The notes: generated by a model from the sequence alone, not told the origin. 62,888 nt of DNA, filler included, from Sanchytrium tribonematis (GCA_018985235.1; 15 parts of 15 records of this genome joined end to end with filler, not necessarily neighbours in it), one strand, 5' to 3'; positions 906-57,016 are shown, counted from the whole stretch's first letter. Numbers and translations: made by a program.

Positions 906-1049
906 TGTGTATCAAAAATTTGACATCAATTTTTTGCGACTCGAATGCTCTCTCGAGTTCACTGGCACAAATGATAAGATTTACAGAATTATGTAAAGAA
1001 AGCTTTATAGATCCCTTCGCATTGATAAGCTCTCCTTGTTTCTTTATTA

Positions 1050-4000
1050 ATGAAGTTACTACACAAAACCATAGTTCCCAGTACTTATGTGCGAGACATT
1101 TGCACAGGTTCATTTACTAAGCCTAAAGAACAGGAGATGGTGACTATTGGAGGATCATTATTAAGACTATTTAGTCTGACAAATGGCAAATTAATTTTGC
1201 TACAAGAATTCGATTTATTATGCACATTGTGCACAGTGAATGCCGTCAAGTTACCTGGCACTCATTTAGATCTAATATGTTTAACTTCTGATGGTGGTTT
1301 ATTCCACGTTTTTAAATTAGAGAATTGTCAATTGTTAAAAATACATGCCGAGGCCTTTGGAAGATCGGGGACGAGGCGTATTATTCCTGGAATTTACACT
1401 TCAGTTGATCCAAAAGGACGAGCAATTATGACTAGTGCCATTGAGTCCAAAAAAATTACCTACATTCTTAATAGGGATGATTCTAAATATTTAATTTCAT
1501 CTCCGTTGGAAATTAATTCGAACAAAACAATTGTCTTTGATAGCTGTGGTGTAGATGTTGGGTTTGATAATCCAGTTTTTGCAGTCTTAGAATGCCAATA
1601 TGACGACGCAACTAGAAACTCGGATTGGTATAATTTTTTGGAAAAACAAGTTGTCTTCTATGAATTAGATTTGGGATTAAATACTATGATTTTGAAATTT
1701 TCTCATAAAGTAGATAGTCAGTCCCATAAAGTAATTCAAGTTCCGAGTGGGCTAGGTCCAAGTGGTGTTTTAGTATTTGCTATTAATTCAGTCACATGGG
1801 TGCACCCAAAAAATGAACCAATTACAGCCCCTTATCCACAAAGAGACCTTGATGCAAACGTTATGGTCAATTGTGTCACTTTGTTTAAATCTAAAAAGCA
1901 GTTTTTTTACATTCTGCAATTTAATAATGGGGATGTTTTTAAATTAGAGTTTAAAGAAGAATTTCAATTTTATTATTTAGCTACTATGAAAGTATGCTCA
2001 CAAATTGCAGTTTTCAAGAGCGGTTTTATTTACTTTGCAAATAACTCGTTGTATCAAATTGAAAATTTAGGAGAGTCAACTTCTACTGAATATGAGGCAA
2101 AGCAGACAGGATCCTTATCAATCGCTCAAAACATGATAAATTTAACGCCTTTACTCCATATTTCAAAGTTTAAGGAATCATTATTTGCTTTAACAGGCAC
2201 TCATGACGAATCAAAGTATTCTTTAATTAAACATGGTTCTATGCCAACTGTTATTCAGAGCATCCCATTACCTGACATTCCAAAGAAAATGTTCTCATTT
2301 TTGTTAAATAGCTTAAATTATATTGCAATTTCATTTATTGAGTATACAATTATTCTAGAATTTGGGCAAACCATCAACCAAAAACAACTAGATTGTTGCA
2401 AATATGCATCTGTGTCTATCGGAACTTTTAAGCATGAGATTTTCCAAGTCACAAATGATTTCATCATGTATAAAAATCGTAATATATTCGAAGCTCCTAT
2501 AAAATTAGCAAGCCACAATGAAAAGCAATTACTGGTTTACTCTCAAAAGTCAGTAATTCTATTTGAACTGAATATTAATGATGATTTGCATGAGGTAATG
2601 AATCTGAGTTTAGAAAATGTCGTAGATATTTCTATTCCTCCACTTAAAAATGCCAATACATTGTTTTTCGTTGTCTTATTTGATCGGGAAATTCATATTT
2701 ATAATTTTAATGGTGAAATGTTAAGTATGACGATGCTTGGATATTCTGCTGTTAATTGTGAAATCTATTTGAGCAAAAATACGTATGCTTTGAATGTTTC
2801 AATGACAAGCGGGCATTGTTTTCATGCAAATTGCAATGAATCGGGTGACTTGTACAACTTAAATACCAAGTATATTTCTCATACCGTAAAATGTCACGAT
2901 CAGCTGATAATTGCTGATGATATTTGGGTAGATGACACCAATATTATCTTGAAAGATCAAATAGATGCAATTTATCTTAATGATATGTTATTTTCAGTTG
3001 ATTCAAAATCATTTGTGTATTGCAGTATCAATTTGCAAGACAAAATGAATATTAAGACTGCCAATTTACCAAACACACCAAAAATATGCTTAGACTACCA
3101 AAATCAAAAGCTTTTACTTTGCTCAGATAATTTCCAACCATTTGATGGATCATGGCAAAGTACCGCATTTTTGCTGTCGGATGATTTAAAAGCTTTACAT
3201 TTGTTTGATCTCAACGAGACCCCATTATCAGCATGTTTTTGTATATTAAAAGATGAAAAATATTTAGCAGTCAGTACTGCTGTTCAACTTAAATCTGTAG
3301 CGTTTGCTTTTCATAAGTCATACATCAAGTTATTTGATTCAAATTTCGAATTGGTGCATACAACAGAATTAAAAGATCTCTGTCATGCGCTACATCCATT
3401 TCACGAATTTTTAATGGCTGGAGTGCATAACAAAGTAGTTCTTTATGATGCTGGAAAAAAACAACTTTTAAAAAAATCAGAAGTTGGCAATGTCAATGAA
3501 AAAATCATAAAAATTCATTCTCAAGGTAATAGGATTTTCGTATCTGATTTGAATACCGGTTATGCTGTATTGGAGTATCTAGAGGGCGAATTTATACGAT
3601 TTTGCGATGATTATCTTCCAAGACATCCAAGTGCAAGCTATTTATTAGATTACGACACATTAATTAGTGGTGACAAATTCGGATTGATTAGTACATTGAG
3701 GGTTCCGGATAGACTCCGAGACGATTTGCAACAAGACATGTACGCCAACAGAATTTTATATCAACGGGGATTTCTCAATGGAGCACCACATCGCTTAGAA
3801 AAAGTCAACGAATTTTTTGTCAATGACTTGGTAACCCATTTTTCAAAAACGACCAGCGCATATGGTCCCATAATTTTAGCGAGTGGAATACACGGGAGTG
3901 TCATTGGCCTGATACCAATCCAATTAAAATCAGAATTCAAAGTTTTAGAACCATTAGAAGATCAAATGCGAATATTGATGAATACAATGAATCGAAGTCA

Positions 4001-4169
4001 TTTGGCATATCGATCTAGTTATGGGGCGTGCAAAGACGTCATTGATTTTGATCTCCTGATTCAATTTTTAGACTTGGATGCAACTACTCAAAATAAGTTG
4101 GCAGAAACTATAGAGTTGACTGTGTCTGAAATATGTACTATTATATATAAATTCAAATCAATAAATTAG
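1050..4169 (+). CDS. RSE1: Splicing factor SF3B3/Rse1 (U2 snRNP SF3b), shortened to 1039 aa
   Basis: FGRSGTRRIIPG, DPKGRA, ISSPLE, DVGFDNPVFAVLE, YELDLGLN, KKQLLKK, LDYDT..GDKFG, GAPH and HLAYRS motifs. Confidence 0.95.
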   Translation: MKLLHKTIVPSTYVRDICTGSFTKPKEQEMVTIGGSLLRLFSLTNGKLILLQEFDLLCTLCTVNAVKLPGTHLDLICLTSDGGLFHVFKLENCQLLKIHAEAFGRSGTRRIIPGIYTSVDPKGRAIMTSAIESKKITYILNRDDSKYLISSPLEINSNKTIVFDSCGVDVGFDNPVFAVLECQYDDATRNSDWYNFLEKQVVFYELDLGLNTMILKFSHKVDSQSHKVIQVPSGLGPSGVLVFAINSVTWVHPKNEPITAPYPQRDLDANVMVNCVTLFKSKKQFFYILQFNNGDVFKLEFKEEFQFYYLATMKVCSQIAVFKSGFIYFANNSLYQIENLGESTSTEYEAKQTGSLSIAQNMINLTPLLHISKFKESLFALTGTHDESKYSLIKHGSMPTVIQSIPLPDIPKKMFSFLLNSLNYIAISFIEYTIILEFGQTINQKQLDCCKYASVSIGTFKHEIFQVTNDFIMYKNRNIFEAPIKLASHNEKQLLVYSQKSVILFELNINDDLHEVMNLSLENVVDISIPPLKNANTLFFVVLFDREIHIYNFNGEMLSMTMLGYSAVNCEIYLSKNTYALNVSMTSGHCFHANCNESGDLYNLNTKYISHTVKCHDQLIIADDIWVDDTNIILKDQIDAIYLNDMLFSVDSKSFVYCSINLQDKMNIKTANLPNTPKICLDYQNQKLLLCSDNFQPFDGSWQSTAFLLSDDLKALHLFDLNETPLSACFCILKDEKYLAVSTAVQLKSVAFAFHKSYIKLFDSNFELVHTTELKDLCHALHPFHEFLMAGVHNKVVLYDAGKKQLLKKSEVGNVNEKIIKIHSQGNRIFVSDLNTGYAVLEYLEGEFIRFCDDYLPRHPSASYLLDYDTLISGDKFGLISTLRVPDRLRDDLQQDMYANRILYQRGFLNGAPHRLEKVNEFFVNDLVTHFSKTTSAYGPIILASGIHGSVIGLIPIQLKSEFKVLEPLEDQMRILMNTMNRSHLAYRSSYGACKDVIDFDLLIQFLDLDATTQNKLAETIELTVSEICTIIYKFKSIN

Positions 4170-4254
4170 TTTCGTGATTTTGGTGATTTTAAGGTCTGAG
4201 TTGTCTCACTAAGTCGATTCTCCTTGTCCGAAAAAACTCCGTGCGACGAGACGT

Positions 4255-5007: not shown

Positions 5008-5072
5008 TGCTTGTTTCGTGATAATTTTAAATAGATTAAACAATGCAGTAAATTAATTGGATATTCCTAAGT

Positions 5073-5870: not shown

Positions 5871-5911
5871 TGGTCAAAGTCTCCTTGAATTCAAATTTCA
5901 ATTTACAATCT

Positions 5912-7108: not shown

Positions 7109-7263
7109 TGTGGCTTGACTTTTCGCGAAATTTTATTTGTGGCCAATATTTGAGTTGAGCGATGGAAAACGAAGCCAGAATTTCTAAGTCAAAAGGAAAG
7201 TGGGAGATTTATATATTTTCTCCAACAAATCTGACTGAGAGGAGGAAACACCACAATTAACTG

Positions 7264-8040: not shown

Positions 8041-8052
8041 TAAATATTTTAA

Positions 8053-9114: not shown

Positions 9115-9221
9115 TTGTTTGAAAACTTTAAAGGAGTAAGCACAAAATCCTACAAATCATCTTTTATTCAGACCAATAATCAAGAAATAAACAAACTAAA
9201 ACTACAGGGAGTGTGATCCTG

Positions 9222-9812: not shown

Positions 9813-9853
9813 TTAGAGATATTTGAGGGAGAACTTTGTAAAACAAGATTTAA

Positions 9854-10945: not shown

Positions 10946-10950
10946 TTAAT

Positions 10951-12582
10951 TTATAATTTTAAACCGTAAGCATCTCTAAACCTTTGGGGTATTGAAGACA
11001 CAACGGCCTTATTTTCAACATCGTTCATGTGAATACTTCTTGTGAGATCGGGAGAATACCTTGTCATGGGATCTGCAGTCCATTTGCCGCTCTGCACCGA
11101 TAACTTTGAAAATGTTTTCCATTCTAATAAACGAAAGCAATATCTTCTTTCACGTTCGACTTCCTCTTTGTCTATACCTAAAGCCAGCTGATGAGCGCTC
11201 CAAACAGCGTCTAAAGAATTGTGAAAACCTCTATTCACCCCTAGACCTTGAGGCCAATACGGATTCTGAAGTGCATCTCCAATAGGTAGAATTAAAACAT
11301 CGCTTTCCCACTTTAAAGGTTGCACGCAGACTCCTTTGCAGGAAAAATCAAAAGCTTGCACACCGTTTCTGTCGCAGATTGGAGCAGAATCCGGGACACC
11401 CGCCGACTGCGCTAAGATTCTTCCAAGATCTCTCAGTTTCTGGAAATCCATGTTGTCTTTGATTAATGTATCCTTAACTTTTGCAAAAACATCCCTAACG
11501 ACACCAAAATTTCTTAATGTAGCAAGTTTTGTTGTAGCAGCAATAAAATGAATTTGATTGCCCCGCATATACTCCATATTTTCGAGATCGACTCCGAGCT
11601 CGATAAGTCTACCCAAAGGACCTTTTTTCCAATCTGCAGAGGCCCTCCATACCTGAAATTCATCCAGTTGCCTTTCTTCCTTTGTAGGATTTGAAGAAAA
11701 CTCTAAGTTTACAACAATTCCAATTGCTTCGCTGTATTTTGCTACTTTTCTGTCAAATCCTAGCCTTCGTATCAAACGTGAGGATTCTCCTTCTGCTATC
11801 AACAAAGTATTAAAGTCGACCAGAGTTGATTTTTTTAGATAATCTGCGTCCGATTCCCTCAGGACTGGCGATTTGAATATGGCAGAGTCCTCTGATATGG
11901 CCTTTTCGAAAAAATCAACTTTTGAAGTTTGTTCTAATTTGTCAGTGTCAGTTTCACACGGTTTTAACGCAAGCTCATTCGTTTCTATCATGGGATTTTG
12001 AAGATAGGCTCTGGCTGCTTCTGAAGGCAATGCCCAAATACAATAATTCGAAGAATTTGTAAAACTTGGATGCAGTATTCCACAGACGCCTTCTCCAAAG
12101 TTAACTGTGACACCGAACAGCAAGCACACTTTAAGAAGGCACAATTGAATTTCTCGCGTGCCAAGATGTAGCAATCCGTGGGATTTAAATCCAGGTACAA
12201 ATATATTTAAACCAAAGCCCATCATGTCATCCACAGTTGCCTGCCAAGTTTTCAGAATATTGTGCCTAGAACAGGAACTTCGAAGCTCGATTAAGGTCAC
12301 ATGATGACCTAATAAAGCAAGTTCTACTGCAGCTCGTAGTCCACAAGGACCAGCACCACTAACAACGACTTTGCTTTTTGTTTTAATACTATCTGAATTG
12401 TATCTTTTGTCTAATGTACTAAATAATTGTTTGTGTTTAAATGGAAGGCTGGGCAAAATGCCATTTCTTATTGAAACGTAACCAGTTCCACCAGATACTT
12501 CTTTGACTTTTTCAAAAGCTTCAATTGTTGGAATTGCGTCATTTGCATTGATAAACTCTTCAAATAAAATTTTAACAACCAT
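10951..12582 (-). CDS. Stand-alone MICAL-type flavoprotein monooxygenase (no CH/LIM domains)
   Basis: GAGPCGLRAAVELALLG, SRHNIL, QLCLLKVCLLFGV, DLEN, FDFS and GDALQNPYWPQGLGVNRGF match the MICAL MO domain. Confidence 0.85.
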   Translation of the reverse strand: MVVKILFEEFINANDAIPTIEAFEKVKEVSGGTGYVSIRNGILPSLPFKHKQLFSTLDKRYNSDSIKTKSKVVVSGAGPCGLRAAVELALLGHHVTLIELRSSCSRHNILKTWQATVDDMMGFGLNIFVPGFKSHGLLHLGTREIQLCLLKVCLLFGVTVNFGEGVCGILHPSFTNSSNYCIWALPSEAARAYLQNPMIETNELALKPCETDTDKLEQTSKVDFFEKAISEDSAIFKSPVLRESDADYLKKSTLVDFNTLLIAEGESSRLIRRLGFDRKVAKYSEAIGIVVNLEFSSNPTKEERQLDEFQVWRASADWKKGPLGRLIELGVDLENMEYMRGNQIHFIAATTKLATLRNFGVVRDVFAKVKDTLIKDNMDFQKLRDLGRILAQSAGVPDSAPICDRNGVQAFDFSCKGVCVQPLKWESDVLILPIGDALQNPYWPQGLGVNRGFHNSLDAVWSAHQLALGIDKEEVERERRYCFRLLEWKTFSKLSVQSGKWTADPMTRYSPDLTRSIHMNDVENKAVVSSIPQRFRDAYGLKL

Positions 12583-13187: not shown

Positions 13188-13276
13188 TTCTGTATCTGTT
13201 TGAAATATCCCTTGTCACTCTATGAAAAATACAAATGCAGATTCCAAATTTAAATTTATTATTGAGCGTGATTTCT

Positions 13277-14422: not shown

Positions 14423-14435
14423 GTATTATAATCCC

Positions 14436-14624
14436 CTATTTATTATCTTCATATCCATTTAGTCCAGAAAAACGACTTTCTGGAAGCGGATATCCATGTG
14501 GAATTGGAAATTTCTTATGGTCTTTAAAATTAAATGAAAAAACTGCAATCACTGGTGCCGCAAGGCCCAGAACTGTCGCAACAGATGCCACAGGATATTT
14601 GAAGACGAATTGACGAAGAGACAT
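14436..14624 (-). CDS. Complex I accessory 9.5 kDa subunit (fungal NI9M / NDUFA3-like)
   Basis: 62 aa, one TM segment, then PIPHGYPLP...GYED tail typical of NI9M. Confidence 0.8.
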   Translation of the reverse strand: MSLRQFVFKYPVASVATVLGLAAPVIAVFSFNFKDHKKFPIPHGYPLPESRFSGLNGYEDNK

Positions 14625-14753
14625 CGAAACAGGGATCTCTCACTTTTAATTTCATTTAGAAAACCTTTGAATTTGTTAATAATCGTTCATTTCTTTAATT
14701 TGTCAAGTATTTATTATGGTTATTGAAACTTCAAAGAAATTGTATTCAGGAGA

Positions 14754-18219: not shown

Positions 18220-18417
18220 GTTTGAAAGGAGTCCACATGTAACAGTTACACTAGATTTAGACAATTATATACGTCAATACAGTGAAGCCAGTTTCTCGCT
18301 GATAATTAGCTTGACAATTACTTGCTCTGTCAGCGAATTTATTAGATTTACATACCACGTTAATCTGATTTTTAAATTTTTCGAATTTTACTTTTTCCCT
18401 CCCTAAAAATATCTACG

Positions 18418-20433: not shown

Positions 20434-20535
20434 NNNNNNNNNNNNNNNNNNNNNNNNNNNNNNNNNNNNNNNNNNNNTTAATTAATTAANNNNNNNNNNN
20501 NNNNNNNNNNNNNNNNNNNNNNNNNNNNNNNNNCA

Positions 20536-20634
20536 CATTATGATATTTCTATGTTTTGTATCAATATATTGGCACTTATATTAAATTTGCGACCGAAGAT
20601 TCTCTCCGAGGATGGCCCAAAGAAGACAAAATAA
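20536..20634 (+). CDS. Possible C-terminal fragment of an ER membrane protein (ends in KKTK)
   Basis: Frame open from contig start: hydrophobic FCINILALIL then a KKxx-type tail and TAA. Confidence 0.3.
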   Translation, partial: HYDISMFCINILALILNLRPKILSEDGPKKTK

Positions 20635-20636
20635 AT

Positions 20637-20963
20637 TTATTGTGTATCTGTGAGAATTTTTAAGAGTGAGATCAATTCATCTTCCTCGCCTGCTTTAGCT
20701 TCGGAAAGATACTCTTCCAAATCACCAAGAGTAACCTTGGGAGGTCTGGCCTTATTAGATAATTTACAAATGTGGGTTTGAACTATTCTATCAACAACAT
20801 TAACTGGAAGCCGTTTTTCCAAATTATCATTTTGCACAATATAATTAACAACTTTCAAAATCCTTTGGGTCATGGTTTGGAAAAGTATAGGGTCGCTCAT
20901 TTTCATTTCATACCAGTTAATTGACTGTACTGTCTGATGAAATTCCTCTAAATTTAATGTCAT
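20637..20963 (-). CDS. Small hypothetical protein (about 108 aa)
   Basis: ATG at 20963 preceded by CAAGGAG element. Fills the space next to RAD7. Confidence 0.5.
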   Translation of the reverse strand: MTLNLEEFHQTVQSINWYEMKMSDPILFQTMTQRILKVVNYIVQNDNLEKRLPVNVVDRIVQTHICKLSNKARPPKVTLGDLEEYLSEAKAGEEDELISLLKILTDTQ

Positions 20964-20978
20964 TACTCCTTGATTCCA

Positions 20979-22447
20979 ATGTCCCACAGAAGAAGTACAA
21001 GAAATGGAAGCAACCAGATCCGTGGACCGACTTCAGCCCTAACTAGCTTTTTGAGAAGCAAGGGAATAGTTGCAAGAAACATTAATGCTTATGGTAGAGT
21101 TAATAGTCTATCGGAACCTGAAGAAATTCTATTTGATATTCCGGAGCGAGAGGTCCGGTATTCAAAGTGTTGCCTCAAATGCTTTATTGAAATTCCAAAA
21201 TACTATGAAAGAAAGTCCATTAATTTGTGCAACAAATGCGCTGAAGATGTCAAAAACCTTGTTCGAATTCGATCTGCTACTAACACAAACAAACTTAAAT
21301 CTATATGGAAAATTCCAGACGAATTTTTGGTGCTCAAAGAAAAACCTGAGGAGTTTCCTTCGCTAATTGTTCGAGCCATCAAAGTCTTAATCGAAAATAT
21401 CGACTCAGTGGAAGATGTGGGACTCATTCCAGATTCTGCTTTGAAAAAAGTTTTTAAACTTGTTTGTAGATATCGCAAGCTGGATTCCAGAGTATTGCGT
21501 ATTTTATTGAACCCACTTAGCGAAGAAATATATTTACCTGATTGTAACCAATTGTCCGAGGCAGACTTTCACTTTGTAATTAATAGCTGTGAAAATGCGG
21601 AAAAAATAGAAATCAGCTTTGCCTCGCAGCTCAGAAATGGTATTTCATTGTTTTCCAAGTTTATGCCAAGTTTGACCCAATTGACTATTCACGGAGCATA
21701 TTTGGCGAGTGACGCTGAATGGGCAAGTCTTTTTAGAGGAATGAATTGTCTAATAAGTGTTAAATTATATCATGCATCAAAATTTTCCAAATTGGCCTGT
21801 GAGAGTTTAGTAAAACTGAATAACGCCTCTAAAAAAGTAATAGAACTTGCATTAACCGATACCAATCACTTGGATGGAGAATGCCTTACCATTTTAAGTG
21901 CTCTTTCAACATTAGAGACGTTAAATTTGTCAAATCCTTTTCACATGATTGAAACAGAAGCTTGGGTCGATTTGCTCAAGGCCGTTGGTCCAAATTTAAG
22001 AGAACTGGTTTTAAATTCTTGTTCAAGCATCAATGATGTAGTTTTGCTTCAGGGAATAAGTCCATTTTGTGTATCTCTGAATTACTTATCTTTGGAGAAT
22101 GCTGATATCAGTGATGAATCCCTGCTGCAAACATTTGATTCATTTCAAACTCATGTTCCTAATCACCAATTTCATTTTTTAAGTTTTCAAAATTGTCACA
22201 AACTAAGCCATGTATCAATCATTAGCATCTTAAGAGACTTTGGGTCATCATTAGAATATCTAAATATCAATGTGGCATTCGTGATTTGTCATCAGATGTT
22301 TTTGTTGCAATAGCCTCTACTTGTAGGAATTTGAAGCATTTAGATACGTCTTGGTGTTGGAATTTCGATGAACTAGCATTTGATGCTATTAAAGAAAATT
22401 GTGACAATATAGAATTTATTAATTGTTTCGGATGTCCACAATTATCT
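20979..22447 (+). CDS. RAD7: Nucleotide excision repair LRR protein Rad7, with a 2-nt frameshift near 22272 and cut by contig end
   Basis: RGPTSALTSFL..GI motif and CC-type LRRs. The LRR continues as GIRDLSSDVF...LDTSWC in another frame. Confidence 0.85.
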
Positions 22448-23696: not shown

Positions 23697-23730
23697 TTCA
23701 AAATCTGATTATCCGCCTGTTACAAGTTGG

Positions 23731-25104: not shown

Positions 25105-25196
25105 TACTTCCCCTGTTTGGGGCAGTTGGATTTGCCAAATTATGTGATTTGTTGGCAAATCTTGGCATTTAAAGTAACTGATGGGAATGTTAACCC

Positions 25197-25772: not shown

Positions 25773-26459
25773 TTATATTTTATTTTCGTAATGCTTGAGC
25801 AGGTATTGCATACAAGCGCGATGCTCCGCCATTGGGATGCTATTACCAATTCCTATTCCAAGAAGTTGCGTATCATTAAATGCCCCAATTTCAAATACTG
25901 GTGAATGACTGAATCGCCCACTTTCTTTAAGTATTTTGAATTCTACCTTAATGTTAAGCAGTTCTTGGACAAGTCTCCTAGGTTCGTCAATTTTAAGAAT
26001 TTCATCTAAATTCAATGAAGTGTTACTGAGTAGCATTTCCTTAACAAATTTTTGTGCCTCGGCAAAACCATGACTATGGGAAAAGTAACCAACAAGAGCA
26101 AAAACAATATTTTTAAGTCGGCCATCTAATATCTTCTCAGAGTTGAACTCATCATATACCCGATGGATTCCCAACTGTTTTGCAAACTTCCCCAATACTT
26201 TTGAATTCATGTACGCCTGAACTCCGTTTTCGATCATGTTTTCTGGTGCCCGTGGCCACTTTTCCATCACAAATTGATACACTATGGTGTGCATCGCGCT
26301 TTTACCAAAACCTTTGAACGCCGAATTGGTTGCAGATGTGTCATGGAATGGGCCAACAGGATTTGTAGCCGGATTTGCAAATATTTTAGAAGCCTCTTCT
26401 TTCGGCAACCGTAGCCTTGCTAGCAGTGCTGCGACTTCGCCTGTTTGTACACCTCTCAT
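25773..26459 (-). CDS. MRPL44: Mitoribosomal protein mL44 (RNase III-like + dsRBD)
   Basis: ESGRFSHSPVF.IG and G.G.SI.MAEHRA. Confidence 0.85.
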   Translation of the reverse strand: MRGVQTGEVAALLARLRLPKEEASKIFANPATNPVGPFHDTSATNSAFKGFGKSAMHTIVYQFVMEKWPRAPENMIENGVQAYMNSKVLGKFAKQLGIHRVYDEFNSEKILDGRLKNIVFALVGYFSHSHGFAEAQKFVKEMLLSNTSLNLDEILKIDEPRRLVQELLNIKVEFKILKESGRFSHSPVFEIGAFNDTQLLGIGIGNSIPMAEHRACMQYLLKHYENKI

Positions 26460-26499
26460 CTCCTAGTTTTACAGGATTCGATCTTAAAACATTTGCCAA

Positions 26500-30865: not shown

Positions 30866-31868
30866 ATGTCAAATGTTATACTAAATCTTAACATTTTCGA
30901 AATTAGGAGAGTGCTCAGACCTTTGCCAATGAAACAAGAAAATTTGATCGAAGCGACAGAGTTTCTAAAATCCTTTGATAATCCTACATTATACAAAACA
31001 AGCGACCAAATTGAAAATATTGAGAATATTTTTTATGACCAACAATCACAGTGTGACTCTCTTAAGCGACTTTTAGATGAAATACCGAGATTTCCTTCTA
31101 AAAGTTTGCAGCAGGAAAAACAGCGTCGATGTACGGAGCTTCAAAAGGAATTACTAGTTAAAGAAGAGTCTAAGGATTCTTTGCGCGAAAGCTTGCAAAC
31201 TGAAATCGAAGCAGTGGTAGACATGATTGAGAAGTTACGACATCTACTGTCTCGGATTCAAGAAAAATCAGCCAAATTAGACGCTGTTCGACGATCTTTA
31301 GACGAGAAGTTACAGGAGGCTCAATCTTCATTTGACAAACGCATTACAGAACAACAGCAATTTCAAGAAAATATTTTGGAAAGAAGAAAAGTCTTGGATG
31401 GTCTCGAAAACAAAGAGACAGAAATTAAGGAGCTTCTTGACAAGTTACAGTCTGAATTAAAATTGAAAGAGCAAGAAATAGCATCGTACGAAGAAAGTAA
31501 GCTCAGTTTGAAAATCAAAATCGAAGAACAACAAGCCTATTTAATTGATAGAGATTCGAAGATTGATGAAGTTTACCAAGAACAATTTACGAAGACAAAT
31601 TTCCTTAAAGAAATATTTAACGAATCAGACATGAAGACTCAAGTTAAATTGAAAAGAAAGACACTTTTTAAAGAGTTTGAGCAGCTTGGGTAATTCTAAC
31701 TAATTAAGATGGAAAATTAGTGAAAGTGGAGATCAAATCTACCAATTTGAAAAGGAAGGTAAATCTGCAACTATAAGTACAGACGTATTTTTCCCTTATA
31801 CCAAAAGTTGTACTGTAAATGGGCATGAAATCGGGTCAAGTTTACTTCAAAGTCTTCAAAATTTATAA
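30866..31868 (+). CDS. Coiled-coil protein, possibly Spc7/KNL1 C-terminal-like (2 exons: 30866-31689, 31709-31868)
   Basis: Long heptad region. Splicing gives FEQLGWKIS plus a beta-rich tail. Family assignment is weak. Confidence 0.6.
31690..31708 (+). other. 19-nt spliceosomal intron GTAATTCTAACTAATTAAG (AAG acceptor)
   Basis: Removes the stop and opens a further 160-nt exon that fills the gap to the next gene. Confidence 0.8.
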
Positions 31869-32201: not shown

Positions 32202-32294
32202 CGATGGCTTGAAAATCTCAACCCGAAGTTTTAAAATTGGATGTAGATGCTCTTGAATCGCGAGTCAATACTATTCAAGAAAAGGAGGTAATAT

Positions 32295-34027
32295 ATGATA
32301 CCTGAAATAATTGAGAAATTCTGCAATAATTTACTATTTGATGAAGCGCTGATTTATGCAGAATTATTATACAGCCAAAATAATTCTGTAGATAATTTGG
32401 AGGTATTGGCGAAAGTGTTATATAACATGCAAAGGTATGAATGTGCATTTGAATTAATTCAAAAAGAATTGAAGCATAAAAAGTTAACGGATAAAACACT
32501 CACTATATATGGCTTTTGTTCGATATATATCAGTCCTGAAAAAGGTTTGAAAGCGATCAAGTCTTACCTGATTAAAAATGAAGGTTCAGAATATTTGCAC
32601 ATAATATACGCTCGATTAAATAGACTTAATGGAGATGTCACCAATAGCAAGAGACACTTTGAAAAGGCTATTGAGCTAAATCCGTTGCTTTTGAATGCAT
32701 ATCGAGAAGCAATGAAACTTGGAAGTACTATGGATCACTCATTTCCTATAAAGATGAATCAATCATCTGACGAACCACTCGAAGAAGAACACGGGGATCC
32801 AGGAATCGTAACTAGAGCTCATCAATCAAATCTTGAGTCAAATTTAATGATAACAAAAAATAATCTTAAAATTTCGACATCATTGAAGCGGAAATCTTCG
32901 GACATTTCATCATTTAAACAAAATCATCCAAAGAAAAAACCCAAATCCTCACCTCCACAATTTGAAATTAACGAGGAAGCGCAAGATCACATCAAGTGTG
33001 AAATGGCTGTTTTTAAATGTATCTGTCAAAGAGATTTTCAAGCGGCTTTGAAAATTTTGAGAGAGTTTGACTCTTTGAACAAGTTTAACTCTTTTATATC
33101 CATTTTGAGAATTATTTGTCAACATGAGCTTAATTTACCAAAATCGGAAACGTTGTTTTCCATTTCAGTACATGTTGAAAAATATGAGCTTCATCTCGAA
33201 GGTCTGGAATATCTTCTTGCTATATTATGGATGTATCAAGATAGTGAGAGGCTTTCGAAGCTAAAATCGCAGTTGAAGAAGAGGTTCCCGAATTCTTTTC
33301 AGTATTATTTATGTAAAGGTTGTTCAAATTCCTTAGAGGGCGAGACAGAGGAAGCTATAAAAGCTTTGACAATGGCAACAAATCTAGATGAGTCGGGATT
33401 TGCTGCAAGTTTATCAGGATGGGTGCTCCTACCAGATGAAAAATTCGACCTTGCTATGCAGCTCTTTAATATCGCCAAAAAAAGAAACTCCACAGACGCT
33501 CGCGCACTTACAGGGTTAGGCTGTGTATATTTGAGAACCAACAATGTCCATAATGCATTAATTGCTCTGCAAGACTCCGAGCGACTTAAAAATAATTCAG
33601 AAACAAACAAGCTGTTATTATCCGAGGCCTTAAGAAAATCCGGCAAACTTGTTGAAGCTTATGAAGTCATAAATGGAGCGTTGTCTTTATTTCCAAAAGA
33701 GCGTACTTTGATTAATGAAAAAATAGTTTTATGCCTGAAAATGAATCAATATACTGTATTTTTATTTTAACACAGGAAGCGGCCAAAGAACTTGAGTCCC
33801 TCAAATCAATAGGGCGTCAGCATCCTTCGGTCAAAATTCTATCAGCGCAGCTTGCTTTACTTTCTGGAAATATCGGCGAATCTCACGGACAATATATGGA
33901 GGTAATTGCTGATGATATTGCCATTATAAATCAAATGCAGATGGGATTAGAAGAAATTTTTTACCCCCAAGATACCCAACATGACTTCAGCGCATTTGAT
34001 GAGGTCAAAATTAGGCCAATTGAATAA
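32295..34027 (+). CDS. CDC27: APC/C TPR subunit Cdc27-like (2 exons: 32295-33755, 33776-34027)
   Basis: ALIYAELL N-terminus, A.ELNP, LEG.EY...LW, A..GLG.VY, and EAAKELE.LK after splicing. Confidence 0.75.
33756..33775 (+). other. 20-nt spliceosomal intron GTATTTTTATTTTAACACAG
   Basis: Joins MNQYT to EAAKELESLK in frame. Confidence 0.9.
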
Positions 34028-36746: not shown

Positions 36747-37157
36747 GAAGTCTTTGTTCTTTCGTCAATTATACTATCTAATTCCCTTTTTTCTTGTGTC
36801 AAAGCACACGAGTAACAAAATAAATGAAGACAATAATCACCTACATAAACATTTTATACCTAAATATTCGTCTTCGTGTATAAAAAATCGCCCTCTCACG
36901 ATAACTCGCTGAGCTCCACTTAATAAAAAATGCTTCAGCATAGGAATGGTAACAATATATAACATTATTGAGTTAAAGTAACTTTGATCAGGGTCTAACA
37001 TTTCCCTTAGATCAGCATAAACCACACAGGGACAGAAACAAGCTCTGCAGAATGTAAATGGCTTTTGCCAGAAATTCCACATAGGAAATTTCCAGCCTCT
37101 TTCCTGAATCGGCGTCCAGCCTAAATCAGTATCAATTTCTTCTTTTTGATAAGCCAT
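36743..37157 (-). CDS. PLAC8/cornifelin-family Cys-rich protein (2 exons: 37157-36860, 36840-36743)
   Basis: CFCPCV in exon 1. DYCLHLFCYSCALTQEKREL in exon 2 after splicing. Confidence 0.88.
36841..36859 (-). other. 19-nt spliceosomal intron GTATAAAATGTTTATGTAG
   Basis: Removal restores the PLAC8 C-terminal D.C..H.FC..CAL.QE motif. Confidence 0.92.
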
Positions 37158-37840: not shown

Positions 37841-37974
37841 GGCCAAAATATTTTTACTTCGTGACGACCCTTAACTACATTTTGAATTATTTTTCATATC
37901 ACTTATTTATTACATCAGAAAATTAATCAATATCACAATTAAAAATTCTCCTTGAATCACATCGTTTAAAATTT

Positions 37975-39112
37975 ATGTCTAACAATAATCATTCTGATGT
38001 TGATTCTAACTGTCTTATGATCGAGCAACAAGACAACAAAGCTTCTAGGAAACTGATTTATGCCTCAATTTTATGCTTTCTTTTCTTTTTGGCGGAATTG
38101 CTTGGTGGAATATTCGCCAATTCACTCGCATTAATTTCAGATTCTTTCCATATGTTATCCGATGTATCAGGATTTGCTATTTCATTGGCAAGTATTTGGA
38201 TTGCAAGTAAACCAAAAACATCGAGGCATTCTTTTGGATTTCACCGCGCTGAAATAATTGGTGCTGTATTGTCTGTATTATTAATTTGGGTTTTGACGGG
38301 AATTCTTCTCAGTGAAGCAGTGGAGCGTATAAAAAATCCAGTCGAGATAAATGCTCCAATTATGCTGCTAACAAGTATTGCTGGACTTGTTGTCAATATT
38401 GTTGTTCTATTTGTACTTGGTGGTCATCATCACGCTGGACATTCTCACCATCACCCAAATATCGAAGAACTCGGTGAGGAAATCGAATCTGGTAGAAACA
38501 GAATGACAAACTCCGTTGCAGGTAGCAATTCTGCTTCTCCATCTCCAACTAGGATTACGCTGGTGGAACCGGACGTGCGGGTCACTGAAGAAAGACACGA
38601 TAACATTAATATCAGAGCAGCCATAATCCACGCACTTGGTGACGCCTTGTTTAGTGTAGGTGTGATTATTGCCTCATTAATAATTTATTTTAAACCAGAA
38701 TACCACATCGTTGATCCCATCTCTACCATATTTTTTAGTATCATTGTTTTATTTACTACTCTCCGAATTTTAAAAGACAGCTTATTTGTTTTAATGGAGG
38801 CATCACCAAGCAATATCGATGTCGACAGACTCAAGTTTGAACTAAGTGGAATTGCTGGAGTGAATGATATTCATTGTTTCCATGTTTGGCTACTATCTAT
38901 TGGAAGGGTAATTTTGGTTTATTTAGACAGCCCTATCAGTTCATTTGGCAACTGACCCATCAGAAATTAGAGATTTAAAAGATCTGCATAGAATATTGGC
39001 CGACGCAGAGCATATCGCTTATAACATATTTAATATCGACCATTGTACAATTCAAATTGAAATTCCAAGAGACGGTGTAAAATCTGGATGCAGAACACCA
39101 TCCAACCAATAA
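37975..39112 (+). CDS. Zinc transporter, ZnT2/SLC30-like CDF (2 exons: 37975-38907, 38927-39112)
   Basis: SLAL.SD.FHMLSD, FG.HRAE, His-rich loop, NINIRAA.IH.LGD, HVW. ALSVHL and HCTIQIE appear after splicing. Confidence 0.93.
38908..38926 (+). other. 19-nt spliceosomal intron GTAATTTTGGTTTATTTAG
   Basis: Removal restores the ZnT cytosolic domain (SVH...HxTIQxE). Confidence 0.93.
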
Positions 39113-39980: not shown

Positions 39981-40022
39981 TTTCTCAAGTTGCAAGGAGA
40001 TTAAATTTGTCACACAATTTTA

Positions 40023-41710: not shown

Positions 41711-42904
41711 GGGGGATTCAAGTCACCGGTAGAACTTTGGTGAGATAAATTGATTGGCTTAATTTGTGCAAATGTTTGACCATCTCCTTTCATTCTTCAA
41801 CTTGCAATTCACTTGGGTGAACGGGTGAAGCAAATGTCGGACTCGTCAGATGAAGATTTAATTATTATTAAGTACCTACATTCCAAACAACAGAAGCCAA
41901 AAAGACAACCAAGGACCCATTATCATCCAATTGTGAAAATTAGAGACTGGTTTGAAGTGAATGTTCCACAATTATCCGAAAGCCGGTACAAATACTTCTT
42001 TCGAATGACTAAAAGTCATTATGAGTACTTTAAGCAAACAATACTAAATAGCGGGTCACCATATCTTGAAAATTTGAATATTGGCAAATTGCATATTTTA
42101 TTGGAAACAACGCGGACACTACAGAAATTAGTGATAGATTTAACATTTCAGCAGGAAGTGTAATATATTATATTGATCAGATGTTACAATTAATAAATGA
42201 CATTTATGGAATTTATGTCAAATGGCCAGCACAAGAGGAAAAAAGACAAATAAAGCATAGATTCTGGTTGACGTCATTGTTTGATAATTGTATTGGTGCA
42301 GTTGATGGTACTCATTGCAGCATTCCTGGAATAGGCAAATTCAAGCAAAGTTATGTTACTAGAAAATGCCAATACGGCATCAATATTACTGCAGTTTGCA
42401 CACCCAGCAAACAGATTTTTTATGCTGTGGTTGGAGCACCAGGATCATATCACGATAATCGTGTTTGGGAGTTGAATGATATTTTTAAAAATTCAAACAA
42501 TTACTTCCAAAATCAAGAATATCTCTTCGGGGATAGTGCCTATACATTGAATGAGCGCATGATGACACCATATATTGGTAATGTTGATCAAAACAAAAGG
42601 AATTTCAATTTTAAGCACTCTCAAGGACGAGTCATCATTGAAAATACATTCGGTTTATTAAAAGGTAGATTTAAGATAATGGGCCAACAAATGAAGTGTA
42701 TGAAGCTTTCCAAATATGTGTTAATATCTAAAGCATGTATTACAGTACATAATATAATAATAGAATATGACAAATTGTGTAATTTAGAAACTAATTTTGA
42801 AATTGAGGAAGATGACTTATACATTTCAGATTGGAATGAAATGCAACAATTGAATCAACATGGAACATCAGTAACAGGTGTATCTATCACTGGACATTCA
42901 AGAC
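41711..42904 (+). mobile_element. PIF/Harbinger DNA transposon, left end plus transposase (frameshifted, cut by contig end)
   Basis: Starts TGA|GGGGGATTCAAG (3-bp TSD-like plus G-rich terminus). Transposase from ATG 41834 has FRM, an HTH, GAVDGTH, G..HD, GDSAY and R..IEN.FG.LK.RF. Frame changes near 42085. Confidence 0.88.
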
Positions 42905-46630: not shown

Positions 46631-46726
46631 GGCAACTCCTTGTTTAATCCGATTTTAGACCAACACGAGTCCATTTCGACTGCACGAGTCAAATGAGTTT
46701 AATGGTTGTCAAATCAATTGTCAAAC

Positions 46727-47018: not shown

Positions 47019-47718
47019 TGGATGATTTGTTGGTATTTGGAGATGGTTTGATGATTTGTGGATCATCTAATTGGTAATTTAAGATATAACTACCATTTTT
47101 CATCTTATTCATGATTAAATAAGGTTGATCGATTAAATTGACTTGAAAACCAACTATATATCTGATTTTATCATTTAATGTGATTGGAATGAGGGAGACT
47201 AGATTGATAAACGGCTCACCATCCTTTTTATAGTTGATTAAAGAGAATTGACCTTCTTTAAAATGTGTAATAGATTGTTTAATTTGATAAACGACATTAT
47301 TATCTGTATATCTTCTGACTTCTCCACATTTGATGACATTGCTATTGGGTGGTGCTTGTAGAAATCTACAGTTCTTGCCAATACATTCATCTGATGAATA
47401 ACCCGTTAATTTGGTGAATGCATCAGAAACATAAATAATGGGATGATCTGGGAGTAAAAAGTCAGATACGACGAATGAACAACTTAAATCAACTGGTCCA
47501 AGATGGATTTGAGGATTAGATCGATGGTAGACATGGGATAGAGTGGATAACAAGTCAAATCCAGTGCTGGAATAGAGACCTGGCATAGATTGTGATTTAT
47601 CTGATGATTGTGGGGTGCTTTCTTGTTTATTGGATGCTTTTAGGGTATTAGAGATGGGATTGGTAGAGTTTGTTGCTGTGTTTTGAGTTCGATTTGTAAA
47701 ATATTTGGAATCGGACAT
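47019..47718 (-). CDS. wc-1: White collar-1-like LOV blue-light photoreceptor, 5' part
   Basis: YSSTGFD, R.NPQI.LGPVD.SCSF, PIIY.S..F..LTGY, GKNCRFLQ (photoactive Cys), INYKK.G.PF.N, GFQV.L..QP. Confidence 0.92.
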
Positions 47719-48257
47719 TTTTGGACGCCACTTTGATTTGGGGGGATTTGTGAGAAAATAGATGAATCGAGTCATTTGATTGGTGGAAAGATGATTTTAA
47801 AAGTGGCACCTGGTGGAATCTAGAGACGGGTGACTATGTGAGTCATGATGATACTAGATGATGGACATAAATATAAAATACGCTTATTAACATGTGAATA
47901 ACATTAAAATGGGTTGTTATTGTCCATCAAAAATCGATTTATTGTTTCATGGCGCGAAAACGTCATGATGAGTCATTTCTTCGTCATTCTATTTCAGGGA
48001 ATCGCAATCAATAAGCGATGTAATAATGAGTAAGGATGATGACGAGTGAGCTCATGTCATAGAATGACAGAATACGTATCAAAATCAATGTGTTTAGTGC
48101 TGATTTGTTAATCTGTTCAAACATTGCTTTAATAGAAAGTTGAGAGGCACAAATTTATTATGACCCACGCATATAATTGAAGAAACATTAGATCTTTAAA
48201 TGGCATTGATTAATTGGTCAACAACCCTTTCAAATCCCCTTGCAAAACCCTTTTAAA

Positions 48258-49023: not shown

Positions 49024-49601
49024 AGAGATTCTAAAGGCTCGATAGATTCGAAAAATATGTGTCCGTTGTCGCACAGCACTAGCGCTATCTTGATTGTGTA
49101 GTAAAGACATTCATTACTCTTCACCTTCAAAATACAATTGTTCAATTTGTAGTATGACTTGAGACCACTGTAAAGAGTATCGCAAATAAGTATTCCAATA
49201 CATTGGATAAATTTAATTGAAAAGAGATGAAAATGATTTTTCAAGAAATAGCTTAACGAATTTAAGAGCGATTCACACAATTCATTGTCAATATCAGAGA
49301 AAAATCTCTTCAAATAGAAATGTTCCAACTGCTCAATACAGTTGCTTACTGTATAATGGCCACCATTTGTTGACAATGACTTGAGAAGCATTCCGATAGA
49401 CTTATCAACCGAGCTGTGGAGGTTGTTTGTGGAAAATAATAAATAAATGTAATTTCCAATGGAAGTATTGTGGAAGTGATGTTTCAATAACATACACACT
49501 AGCAAATTTATATTACTTATTATTTGAGGTTGTGTGTCATCGAGACTATTATTGGCTTCCAACCACTGGATGACATCTTCTGAAGATACTTGTGCTTTCA
49601 T
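49024..49601 (-). CDS. Hypothetical helical protein (3' cut)
   Basis: ORF open to the contig end. ATG directly preceded by AGGAG. Confidence 0.55.
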
Positions 49602-49670
49602 CTCCTAATTTCTCCCCTTAATCAGTATATTCTATAAATGCCATGTTGATCAACTCATAATAATATTTAT

Positions 49671-50870: not shown

Positions 50871-51027
50871 TTGTTTGATCCTTTATTCTCCCTTGTACAA
50901 ATACATATTGTACTTTTGCATAAATCANNNNNNNNNNNNNNNNNNNNNNNNNNNNNNNNNNNNNNNNNNNNTTAATTAATTAANNNNNNNNNNNNNNNNN
51001 NNNNNNNNNNNNNNNNNNNNNNNNNNN

Positions 51028-52386: not shown

Positions 52387-52480
52387 GAAGTTTCACCAAA
52401 CAAACTTTACTTTTTGAAACTTCGTATTCTTAAAATAATTTCTTAGTTATTAATTTGAAATATGGATAATGATTGTTTTG

Positions 52481-52541
52481 CTAGTTGGAAAAAATACTGA
52501 TATGCAATCATGGGTTCCTAGTTCGAATCTTGGGACCCCCG
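52481..52541 (+). pseudogene. Degenerate tRNA-like sequence (tRNA pseudogene or SINE head)
   Basis: TAGTTGG A-box-like, T-arm CCTAG-TTCGAAT-CTTGG and 3' GACCCCC. No matching 5' acceptor strand. Confidence 0.35.
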
Positions 52542-52698
52542 GAAATAAGTTGCAGAATTCACTAGGAATTCTCACAAATAGTTCGAGAAATCAAGGTAAA
52601 TCTTGCAAGGAGAAAATTTACATAATTTACTTCAATTTCTCATAGATTGATTGAGAATTTCCTCAATATCTTGTACATGTACTTGAGTAATCGAGTAG

Positions 52699-52931
52699 TG
52701 CAATTGACGAATATGCACTTGACAAATATGCAATTGAAATATATGCACTTGACGAATATGCACTTGACAAATATGCACTTGAAATATATGCACTTGACAA
52801 ATATGCACTTGAAATATATGCAATTGACGAATATGCACTTGACAAATATGCACTTGAAATATATGCACTTGAAATATATGCACTTGACGAATATGCACTT
52901 GAAATATATGCACTTGACAAATATGCACTTG
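52699..52931. repeat. 15-bp minisatellite ATATGCA(C/A)TTGA(CAA/AAT/CGA), about 15 copies, runs into contig end
   Basis: Tandem units read directly from the sequence. Confidence 0.95.
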
Positions 52932-53066
52932 NNNNNNNNNNNNNNNNNNNNNNNNNNNNNNNNNNNNNNNNNNNNTTAATTAATTAANNNNNNNNNNNNN
53001 NNNNNNNNNNNNNNNNNNNNNNNNNNNNNNNAATTCTATCAAACTCATTTCATCCCCTATTTGTAA

Positions 53067-53468: not shown

Positions 53469-53505
53469 ATCTATTTCATGCCAATTTATCCTCCATTTAT
53501 TCATT

Positions 53506-54015: not shown

Positions 54016-54183
54016 TCACAGACCAAAGTGATAAACGGCAAGGTAATTATCTGATTGCAGCTATACAATTGGAAGGATAAAATTAGATAATCTTGCCCAA
54101 AATCAAAATTAATCCAGAGAATTGAGAGCAAAATCGTTGCAGTCAGAAAATTGATATCATTTCTTATCTAATTTCCAATCTAT

Positions 54184-54924: not shown

Positions 54925-55024
54925 NNNNNNNNNNNNNNNNNNNNNNNNNNNNNNNNNNNNNNNNNNNNTTAATTAATTAANNNNNNNNNNNNNNNNNNNN
55001 NNNNNNNNNNNNNNNNNNNNNNNN

Positions 55025-55690: not shown

Positions 55691-56798
55691 GTTTCCTCCC
55701 CCTCTCTAACAACGCAATAGAATCATTATCTAAAAGTAACAAAGTATCCAAAATAAGTTGTTTCAAATTCTGTGCTTCTGCCACAGTCATATTTTCAATT
55801 TGCCACACTGGATGAGACCCATAAATCAGATCGAAAGCATCATTTAATGCAATATAAAATGGAGTTATATTCAAATCCTTTAAATAATTAGCAAATTTTA
55901 TAATTTGTTGCAATTGGTCAATGGGTGTGAATTGGCTCACTCCCACGTGTTTATCAAGAAATACATCTAGTCCCTCACTCTCTGGATGATCTAAATACAT
56001 TTGTGCCTCATTGGAAATAGCTTGAAATTGATTTTTTAAATAAATCTCATGTATTTCCATGATTGTATGTATTATTGCATCAATACGAGGTGCTTTTACA
56101 TTAAATATCATTCTAGTGGCTTCTAATACTTGTTCTTGTGCATATGGCATGTAATGTGCCAATCTATTTACAATATCATTTGCATTTAAACTTGCAAATT
56201 CAAGAATAAATTGTATTTTATATTCTAAATCACCTGGCAAGACACCTAAATGTTTAATTACAAATTCATTCATTTCATGCATCTCTTGCTTTGATAGTGA
56301 ATGCTTTGCTTTTAATAATTGCAAGTATCTATTTGCTAGTTGCTTAATACTCTGAATTCTTGAATCATATCTCATTTTAGAATCATGAGAAACATGCAAT
56401 TGGGGCCATTTTGGAATGTCCAATCGAAATTTTTGTAATAAAGACATAAACCATGCTATTTGGGGAAGCTCAAATTCCGACTTTAAAGCATTCTCTGCCA
56501 TGGCTGATTGAATTTGTGCAGCTGCTTTTTGTATTTGATCTGGTAATTTCATTGGCAGCACTGCTGCGCTGGTCACACTACTTCCAACTTGCATCTCAGT
56601 TACTGTGGACGAGTCTACGGTTGATGCTTCTGTTGCTACTTGATACACTGCAGTTGAACCACGTCCTGCTGTTGAAGGTCTTGCTGATGAAGTACTTATA
56701 AATGCGTTAGTAGGTCCCAAAGCCAATGATCCCATGGACAATGCAGCAGCGATTGCCGCCGATTTTGCAGGCAAACTGTAAAGTACTGTCAACAACAT
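55644..56798 (-). CDS. Orphan secreted protein with two helical repeats
   Basis: Leader MLLTVLYS, second hydrophobic block ending TNA, S/T linker, repeats FVIKHLGV and FLDKHVGV. Confidence 0.7.
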   Translation of the reverse strand: MLLTVLYSLPAKSAAIAAALSMGSLALGPTNAFISTSSARPSTAGRGSTAVYQVATEASTVDSSTVTEMQVGSSVTSAAVLPMKLPDQIQKAAAQIQSAMAENALKSEFELPQIAWFMSLLQKFRLDIPKWPQLHVSHDSKMRYDSRIQSIKQLANRYLQLLKAKHSLSKQEMHEMNEFVIKHLGVLPGDLEYKIQFILEFASLNANDIVNRLAHYMPYAQEQVLEATRMIFNVKAPRIDAIIHTIMEIHEIYLKNQFQAISNEAQMYLDHPESEGLDVFLDKHVGVSQFTPIDQLQQIIKFANYLKDLNITPFYIALNDAFDLIYGSHPVWQIENMTVAEAQNLKQLILDTLLLLDNDSIALLERGRKHDFCIDFWNSNEKSL

Positions 56799-57016
56799 TT
56801 GATTTGGGGGAATCTCAGGTGATTCTCCTGTGATCCATTGTATTTTTCAAATGATGTCATTTACAAATCAGGTGTGACCATGTGATATCATGTGATTTAT
56901 TAAGTGTCACGTGAATNNNNNNNNNNNNNNNNNNNNNNNNNNNNNNNNNNNNNNNNNNNNTTAATTAATTAANNNNNNNNNNNNNNNNNNNNNNNNNNNN
57001 NNNNNNNNNNNNNNNN

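Follow-up and report, generated by a model that had tools for sequence, protein, structure and literature searches.

Is the short word CTCCTT, or its complement AAGGAG, which lies beside many start codons of the sanchytrid fungus Sanchytrium tribonematis (GCA_018985235.1), a genuine signal, and if it is one, is it read in the DNA or in the messenger RNA (mRNA)? The question arises from a stretch of 62,888 nucleotides (nt) of one strand, hereafter the window, in which 15 contigs (two of ~18 kb and thirteen of ~1.9 kb) are joined via N44-TTAATTAATTAA-N44 linkers; its GC content is 35.0%, and all motif statistics given here are confined to it. An initial annotation, made from the sequence alone, had described the word as an orientation-independent, bidirectional and CCC/GGG-like core-promoter element beside most start codons. 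All 24 gene/motif pairs that it cited are present within 35 nt of an ATG, one of these ATGs (18592) being weak as the 17th codon in a frame already open where the contig begins, and three sites having been counted twice through divergent gene pairs. Here we report that the start-proximal element is real and statistically strong, and we give about an even chance to the reading in which WCYCCTT(G) is a lineage-restricted minimal core-promoter element that is read as double-stranded DNA and would set the transcription start.

Enrichment of the Word Before Gene Starts

A mechanical search gave 57 open reading frames (ORFs) of at least 100 codons; for 47 of them the 5′ frame is closed and 45 nt of upstream sequence are available. 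Among the 4-mers, 5-mers, and 6-mers of these 45-nt upstream windows, counted on either strand, CTCC, CTCCT, and CTCCTT rank first, respectively. The 5-mer CTCCT/AGGAG, hereafter the core, occurs in 17/47 upstream windows versus 3.0 in dinucleotide shuffles, and in 2 of the 49 windows after stop codons. For the counts that follow, 12 of the 57 ORFs were removed (contig-end cuts, continuation exons, and uncertain starts) and overlapping or shared spacer windows were merged into 42 regions. This removal was done after the sequences had been seen, with ORF 30866 taken out partly on motif grounds, and therefore the undropped count is the unbiased one. Enrichment over background, as the initial annotation had expected, is borne out by the merged set: the core is found in 15/42 start regions (expected 2.6, maximum 8 in 2000 dinucleotide shuffles) with a z of 8.2, compared to 6.0 as the highest value that any 5-mer attains in 500 shuffles, and CTCCTT in 10/42 merged regions versus 1.0 expected. 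By spacer type, the core is present in 7/12 divergent spacers (one copy each), 6/17 tandem spacers and 0/13 convergent spacers, a few of these mechanical spacers being actually introns or containing 3′ exons.

Start windows also differ sharply from windows at internal methionines (17/42 vs. 9/323, p=6e-12); the density of the core is 8.8/kb in start windows, compared to 0.96/kb within ORFs and 0.29/kb across the remaining non-ORF DNA. Each contig group is enriched by itself (7/13, 4/14, and 4/14 vs. 0.6, 0.4, and 0.9 in mononucleotide shuffles). De novo expectation-maximization on both strands recovers TCTCCTT/AAGGAGA at ~70% occupancy, with the consensus WCYCCTT, and the resulting position weight matrix scores at least 6 bits before 27/42 genes versus 48/323 internal-Met windows, where the starts are mostly first-ATG calls.

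How far the word extends across genes depends on how strictly it is defined. The claim of "most start codons" holds only for the class CYCCY, which was defined after the data had been seen and stands before 25/42 genes and in 23/42 merged regions versus 7.1 expected; it fails for the exact core, which covers 40% of genes. The AGGG(G)/CCCC variants of the initial annotation likewise survive in part, since AGGG/CCCT is enriched by itself in core-less windows (9/24 vs. 4.8, p=0.016), with no excess for CCCC/GGGG (4 vs. 3.5), and its description of the spacers as very AT-rich needs qualifying, the GC content of start windows (0.336) being scarcely below that of ORFs (0.353). Plain CCC/GGG shows no enrichment in the dinucleotide shuffles (18/42 regions vs. 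17.6); because these preserve CC frequency, and because raw CCC density in start windows is twice that of other non-ORF DNA, there may be a weak CCC excess in start windows.

Among other words, a TATA-like excess is absent from start windows (6 vs. 8.8) and TGTCA/TGACA is not significant as a second word (8/41 windows vs. 5.0). AAATTT is found in 10/41 windows versus 4.5 (p=0.008), mostly in core-less ones (6/17), and in 7/49 3′ flanks. It stands before the core-less genes for RPS2 (two copies, 59327-59353), chitin deacetylase (7128-7133) and RFC1 (916-921), and is reminiscent of the signal of microsporidian ribosomal-protein genes. The chitin deacetylase gene is also preceded at 7119-7128 by TTTCGCGAAA, which we take to be an E2F/SBF-like word; CGCG words show no overall enrichment.

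Could the pattern be an artefact of chance G/C words in AT-rich spacers, of double counting at divergent pairs, or of codon-derived AAG-GAG in neighboring genes? Three sites do belong to two genes at once, coding strands often contain AGGAG (36 in ORFs), and the variant class is post hoc. However, the enrichment persists after de-duplication, after dinucleotide shuffling and against the maximum over all 5-mers, none of the 15 core sites falls in coding DNA, and the same mechanical rule yields nothing in 79 other loci. Comparison loci were taken from a broad metagenome scan with ELP3 (best 80 of 277), and in 79 other eukaryotic ELP3 loci the core is not enriched at mechanically called starts (19/325 start windows vs. 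23.3 expected); within these 79, the loci below 42% GC have it in 0/100 start windows versus 3.4 expected. None of the 79 is firmly placed among rozellids, aphelids or blastoclads, and the result means no more than that the word is not a general feature of eukaryotes. In addition, the first contig is matched by contigs of run X1 with five base differences, none of them at a motif site, although these are not independent data. With de-duplication, shuffles and the 79-locus control all against it, a compositional artefact is rejected, and we consider this family of explanations highly improbable.

Orientation and Polarity

A site is called C-oriented when CTCCT, and G-oriented when AGGAG, reads in the sense of the gene that follows. 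Overall there are 13 C-oriented and 13 G-oriented sites, with a ratio of 6:5 in tandem genes and, for matrix sites before genes without a divergent neighbor, 8:8; the use of two orientations is therefore not a by-product of head-to-head pairs. The orientation independence proposed at the outset is correct to this extent, yet the element is polar, since AGGAG may touch the ATG and CTCCT never comes within 7 nt of it. Gaps between the end of the 5-mer and the ATG range from 7 to 45 nt in the C orientation (median 14) and are 0, 0, 1, 2, 5, 5, 5, 7, 10, 10, 17, 19, and 22 nt in the G orientation (median 5), with AGGAG abutting the ATG at mL44 and ORF 49601 and lying 1-2 nt away at MRF1 and ORF 20963. 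This difference is significant (p=0.013, or 0.007 when each site is assigned to its nearest gene), the probability of finding no C-oriented gap of 6 nt or less by chance is 0.003, and the C-minus-G shift is estimated at 8 nt (bootstrap 5-15).

The close approach of AGGAG to the ATG recalls a signal at the mRNA level, in which sense AGGAG would be a Shine-Dalgarno-like sequence or another enhancer of translation, and sense CTCCTT, complementary to it by coincidence, a distinct pyrimidine-rich initiator or leader element. Such an account would explain why 10/13 G-oriented sites cluster 0-10 nt before the ATG, and CDC27 carries a perfect AAGGAGGT. It sits badly with the half of the sites that are C-oriented, including those in tandem spacers without an opposite-strand gene, with the presence of the same degenerate variants in both orientations, and with gaps of 0-2 nt, too short for Shine-Dalgarno spacing; moreover, to our knowledge eukaryotic 18S ribosomal RNA (rRNA) is generally without the anti-Shine-Dalgarno CCUCC. 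The Shine-Dalgarno reading itself is rejected on the 8:8 ratio before non-divergent genes and on G-oriented gaps that spread over 0-22 nt, and we regard the mRNA-level account as a whole as unlikely.

The term "bidirectional" likewise needs to be narrowed. It is plausible that one site serves two genes in three short spacers of 15, 40, and 41 nt, each with a single shared site and no ATG on either side of it. In seven longer divergent spacers the site is close to one gene, and in 5/7 ATGs separate it from the far gene; the general claim that every site drives both flanking genes is rejected.

A Putative Two-Way Initiator

Equal use of both orientations argues that the word would be recognized as double-stranded DNA. 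In the core-promoter reading, a sequence-specific factor would bind the WCYCCTT(G) site and initiation would occur near its TT|G end, on whichever strand carries a gene. In the C orientation this would place the motif immediately 5′ of the transcription start, and in the G orientation among the first mRNA bases, with predicted 5′ untranslated regions (UTRs) of ~6-45 nt in both. When distances are measured from an axis 1-2 nt 3′ of CYCCY, the minima (6, 6) or the medians (12, 12) of the two orientations become equal, and the fitted axis falls at the TT|G end of CTCCTTG. That a single reference point fits both orientations suggests back-to-back start sites. As AGGAG can touch the ATG, transcription in the G orientation should begin inside or before the word, or else the mRNA would be almost leaderless. 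Out-of-frame ATGs occur within 10 nt upstream of the C-oriented sites at the kinase and RAD7 genes, and under scanning the mRNA should begin downstream of them, which suggests a start at or after the site. In very short head-to-head spacers a single site would serve both genes. The orientation offset gives a sharp prediction of transcript 5′ ends.

The main rival is a different DNA-level account, though we hold it only tentatively: a single general regulatory factor may bind the word, whichever way it points, and keep promoters open, with nearby YR dinucleotides selecting the start independently. The binding protein would then likely be a two-finger C2H2 protein. One site per spacer as a rule, in either orientation, with tolerated T/C variation in the core and a 0-45 nt spread to the ATG, is what such a factor would produce. 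A bound factor would, however, overlap the start region where AGGAG touches the ATG or lies 1-2 nt off, and an orientation-dependent minimum distance is unexpected for a position-free activator.

Several observations weigh against the core-promoter reading. The axis was fitted on the same 26 distances that it explains, and the bootstrap range of the shift is wide. Depletion of ATGs between site and start is not significant (0/191 vs. 6/514 positions, p=0.2), and the intervening ATGs of the longer divergent spacers have to be counted here as well. Cross-validated matrices reach a modest area under the curve (AUC) of 0.65 and 0.73 in two folds, and a third fold learned GTGTCAA instead (AUC 0.59, not significant). 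As many as 17/42 genes, RPS2 included, are without even CYCCY within 45 nt. ORFs do not avoid AAGGAG (15 vs. 13.7), and their deficit of CTCCTT (1 vs. 6.3) ranks merely 122 of 3401 6-mers. At the sole intact gene start of a 2.6-kb sanchytrid locus recovered by the metagenome scan, the preceding CAAGGGTG scores 4.5 bits only, for a single gene. Lastly, each step from "site" to "promoter" is one that we infer from sequence.

Individual Sites and Gene Starts

The following coordinates are those of the window, with the strand of each site in brackets. C-oriented TCTCCTT is found at 1031..1037 (+) before RSE1 (ATG 1050), 126 nt from the RFC1 start with two ATGs intervening; at 4219..4225 (+) in the tandem spacer before ORF 4255; at 37947..37953 (+) before ZnT (ATG 37975); at 39994..40000 (−) in the tandem spacer before TYW2 (ATG 39980, minus), where AAATTT precedes; and at 41783..41789 (+), 44 nt before the DDE transposase ORF 41834, a site absent from the initial annotation. 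ACTCCTT is C-oriented at 9131..9137 (−) before the KES1/oxysterol-binding gene (ATG 9114, minus; tandem) and at 18226..18232 (−) before the kinase/Sel1 gene (ATG 18219, minus), an out-of-frame ATG lying just upstream of the latter site. TCCCCTT at 48235..48241 (+) before ORF 48258 and TCCCCTA at 53053..53059 (+) before RPL26 (ATG 53067) are C-oriented variants, the upstream DNA of RPL26 being only 35 nt long.

G-oriented sites before minus-strand genes comprise TCTCCTT on the plus strand at 5880..5886 (+), which reads AAGGAGA in the tandem spacer before IBA57/CAF17 (ATG 5870); TCCCCTA at 14432..14438 (+), which reads TAGGGGA before cysteine synthase (ATG 14422); TCCCCTG at 25109..25115 (+), read as CAGGGGA before the SFH1/SNF5-family gene (ATG 25104); ACTCCTT at 46635..46641 (+), read as AAGGAGT before ELP3 (ATG 46630), whose start agrees with the Amoeboradix protein; and TCTCCCT at 50887..50893 (+), read as AGGGAGA before FPR4/nucleoplasmin-FKBP (ATG 50870). 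The variant ATCCCTT at 13207..13213 (+), read as AAGGGAT before ORF 13187 (minus), falls below the 6-bit threshold, and TCCCCCT at 55697..55703 (+) is G-oriented before ORF 55690 (minus), whose start is uncertain, its ATG lying inside ORF 56798. Two genes have two sites each: TCTCCTA and TCCCCTT within 49601..49619 (+) are both G-oriented before ORF 49601 (minus), the proximal AGGAG abutting the ATG, whereas TCCCCCA (C) and CAGGAGA (G) within 56805..56830 (no single strand) have opposite orientations before ORF 56798 (minus). On the plus strand the G-rich form is written GAGGAGG at 7239..7245 (−) before BUD23 (ATG 7264), CAGGAGA at 14747..14753 (−), abutting the MRF1 ATG (14754), and AAGGAGG at 32282..32288 (−) before the APC3/tetratricopeptide-repeat (TPR) gene called CDC27 (ATG 32295), all three being G-oriented.

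Three sites are the sole ones of short spacers. TCTCCCT at 9826..9832 (−) lies in a 41-nt divergent spacer between ORF 9812 (C) and the cation-efflux gene 9854 (G), and ACTCCTT at 20965..20971 (+) in a 15-nt divergent spacer between ORF 20963 (G) and the leucine-rich repeat (LRR) gene "RAD7" (ATG 20979, C). TCTCCTA at 26459..26465 (+) occupies a 40-nt spacer with NXT1 (ATG 26500), its AGGAG abutting the mL44 ATG (26459, minus). The RAD7-like LRR gene (20534-22447) has a second copy in run X1, ~97% identical to this contig, and the site is unaltered among the listed differences. This copy has 2 nt fewer at 22271, where the window copy is frameshifted, and the 1.9-kb contigs could represent alternative alleles, or else paralogues.

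Some gene starts probably have to be revised. TAGGAGA on the plus strand at 30904..30910 (−) lies 18 nt before the in-frame ATG 30929 of ORF 30866, which suggests Met22 rather than the first ATG as its start; a search for homologues of this ORF to check the start found none. The first-ATG start of COX16 (23697-23730) is probably wrong, the likely one being 23731, and the COX16/UBR-box spacer contains a CCGCCTG variant. For the WDR6-like gene the first-ATG start 33981 is probably wrong as well and 34068 likely, because 33981 would fall within the predicted CDC27 3′ exon.

Predicted 19-nt Introns

At 10 ORF ends the frame opens again across a GT-AG gap of exactly 19 nt, compared to six or fewer for each other length from 12 to 45, and we predict from this that the genome has ultrasmall GT-AG introns whose lengths peak sharply at 19 nt. 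Predicted examples are found in MSH4 (29459-29477, −), ZnT (38908-38926, +), PLAC8 (36841-36859, −), and IDO (60393-60411, −), as well as at 31690-31708 (+) and 62353-62371 (+), with a predicted 20-nt intron in CDC27 (33756-33775, +). Two domains continue over such gaps: in ZnT the ZT_dimer Pfam positions are 1-30 before the predicted 19-nt gap and 35-76 after it, and in PLAC8 they are 1-79 and 83-101. In MSH4, domains III-IV lie on one side of another predicted gap and domain V on the other. Of the candidates, at least TYW2 seems a chance case. The DDE_Tnp_4 transposase gene (41834-42904) comprises two ORFs that are joinable through a predicted 23-nt intron. Relative to synonymous shuffles the most depleted coding-strand 6-mer is AATAAA (18 vs. 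41.6), and the next most depleted are the branch-point-like ACTAAT/CTAAT. The predicted size matches that of chlorarachniophyte nucleomorph introns, given as 18-23 nt in an excerpt of PMC4494063, and a full-text literature search found no report of 19-nt introns in sanchytrids. Together with the motif, introns this small could serve to correct sanchytrid start codons and gene models.

Placement and Gene Content

ELP3 of the window is 88% identical to a EukProt protein of Amoeboradix gromovi and to one ENA protein, and at most 77% identical to other named fungi. In a quick tree (43/121 sequences) the window, Amoeboradix and ENA proteins form a long-branch clade with a support of 100 in the Shimodaira-Hasegawa-like approximate likelihood ratio test (SH-aLRT), and RPS2 agrees with this placement. 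According to an excerpt of PMC8371127, the two published sanchytrid genomes have 10.5-11.2 Mb and 34.6-36.3% GC, their proteomes are TransDecoder gene calls on genomic contigs, and sanchytrids are the sister group of Blastocladiomycota. Further sanchytrid DNA was sought: ELP3 or parts of it gave no match in viral contigs, a sanchytrid-specific ELP3 pattern none in metagenome or genome contigs, and an RPS2 query no further sanchytrid match in genome contigs. The 2.6-kb metagenome locus (L004), with ELP3 88-89% identical to sanchytrid proteins, loses ELP3 similarity ~80 nt from the contig start (1-100; possibly a chimera or break), and at 1140-1721 it encodes a Gln/Gly/Met-rich repeat protein followed by a Y-family-polymerase-like fragment, labeled by reading the translation.

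The majority of gene labels are backed by Pfam; RAD7, ALKBH7, and 7TM are labels of the initial annotation that have no Pfam match at E 1e-4. Pfam also identifies a gene with a MICAL-like monooxygenase domain (10951-12582) and a LOV/PAS (white-collar-like) gene fragment (47019-47775). Within the window there is no transfer RNA (tRNA) or Rfam match; a tRNA-like 3′ half (GTTCGAATC loop) at 52490-52545 is called by neither ARAGORN nor Rfam. An orphan AAGGAGA at 52607 adjoins it, as does a tandemly repeated ORF that the contig end truncates (52607-52931).

Comparison with Known Signals

The bacterial Shine-Dalgarno sequence is AGGAGG, ~5-10 nt from the start codon. In the G orientation the sanchytrid word has identical letters and often lies 4-10 nt before the ATG; unlike it, the complement is equally frequent, several gaps are 0-2 nt, and the genes are nuclear and eukaryotic. 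Yeast has the stress response element (STRE; Msn2/4) AGGGG and the Adr1 site GGAG, which regulate a subset of genes from upstream positions. These share with the sanchytrid word an orientation-free AGGRG core, whereas the latter abuts start codons.

The published systems that come closer are described here from excerpts of the cited papers. In Trichomonas vaginalis, whose genome has short 5′ UTRs, the start site is dictated by the core-promoter element m5 (CCTTT), which lies no more than 20 nt from the ATG (PMC7370421). The sanchytrid word is a similarly short CCTT-containing element near the ATG, with a consensus ending CCTT(G); m5 is treated as a sense-strand word that contains the start site and has a cognate binding protein, whereas the sanchytrid word has an extra CY/CT head, occurs in both orientations and belongs to an unrelated lineage.

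Microsporidia offer the nearest parallel. Encephalitozoon cuniculi has 5′ UTRs shorter than 7 nt with start-proximal C/G signals, a CCC-like one in 1474 genes and a GGG-like one in 117, and its ribosomal-protein genes additionally carry AAATTT (PMC2803860). In Nosema the motif is ACCCC or ACCCTT and lies 20 bp or less from the start, with GGG not significant, the signal taking the form TTTTTTTACCCC, plus ACCCTT in Nosema apis (PMC11592040), while Nematocida has a modified CCC motif (PMC3514677). Such signals also precede non-coding RNA genes (PMC5499648) and serve annotation (PMC10815200), and in the literature covered no binding factor is named for them. Once start codons are corrected they stand before nearly all genes, and transcription begins a few bases downstream of them; in the window, for comparison, CYCCY precedes 25/42 genes at mostly first-ATG starts. 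The likeness is that of a short C-rich word or its G-rich counterpart directly before starts in a compact parasite genome; AAATTT is modestly enriched in the sanchytrid window too, mainly in core-less start windows, and ACCCTT of Nosema apis resembles the sanchytrid variants ATCCCTT and TCCCCTT. The differences are that the sanchytrid core is mostly CTCC, that it lies 0-45 nt from the ATG with an orientation-dependent offset rather than within ~15-20 nt, that its 13:13 orientation departs from the 1474:117 bias of E. cuniculi (p=1.4e-8), and that sanchytrids are a separate lineage, sister to Blastocladiomycota (PMC8371127). The label "CCC/GGG-like" is thus apt as a resemblance, while strict membership in the microsporidian class is rejected, the triplet not being enriched and the strand bias being absent. 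The sanchytrid word likely works in a similar manner, and convergence driven by genome compaction is a likelier source of the resemblance than inheritance.

No description of the element was found in the main texts searched for sanchytrid promoters or motifs, for early-fungal core promoters, for CCC motifs beyond microsporidia, and for the words themselves, and it is apparently undescribed so far. It is conceivable, though we would call it speculative, that sanchytrids independently evolved a one-word, polar, two-way initiator with back-to-back starts at the TT|G of CTCCTTG, the same 7-8 bp being the upstream promoter of one gene and the first mRNA bases of the other and 15 bp of intergenic DNA sufficing for two genes. 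Together with 19-nt introns this would be a second independent fungal route to the minimal expression grammar of microsporidia and nucleomorphs. Sanchytrids would then be a second system for finding the protein that reads such a signal. Such a look-alike in a fungal phylum that was reduced on its own would also mean that extreme compaction leads again and again to a C/G-rich promoter word close to the start, in sanchytrids as in microsporidia.

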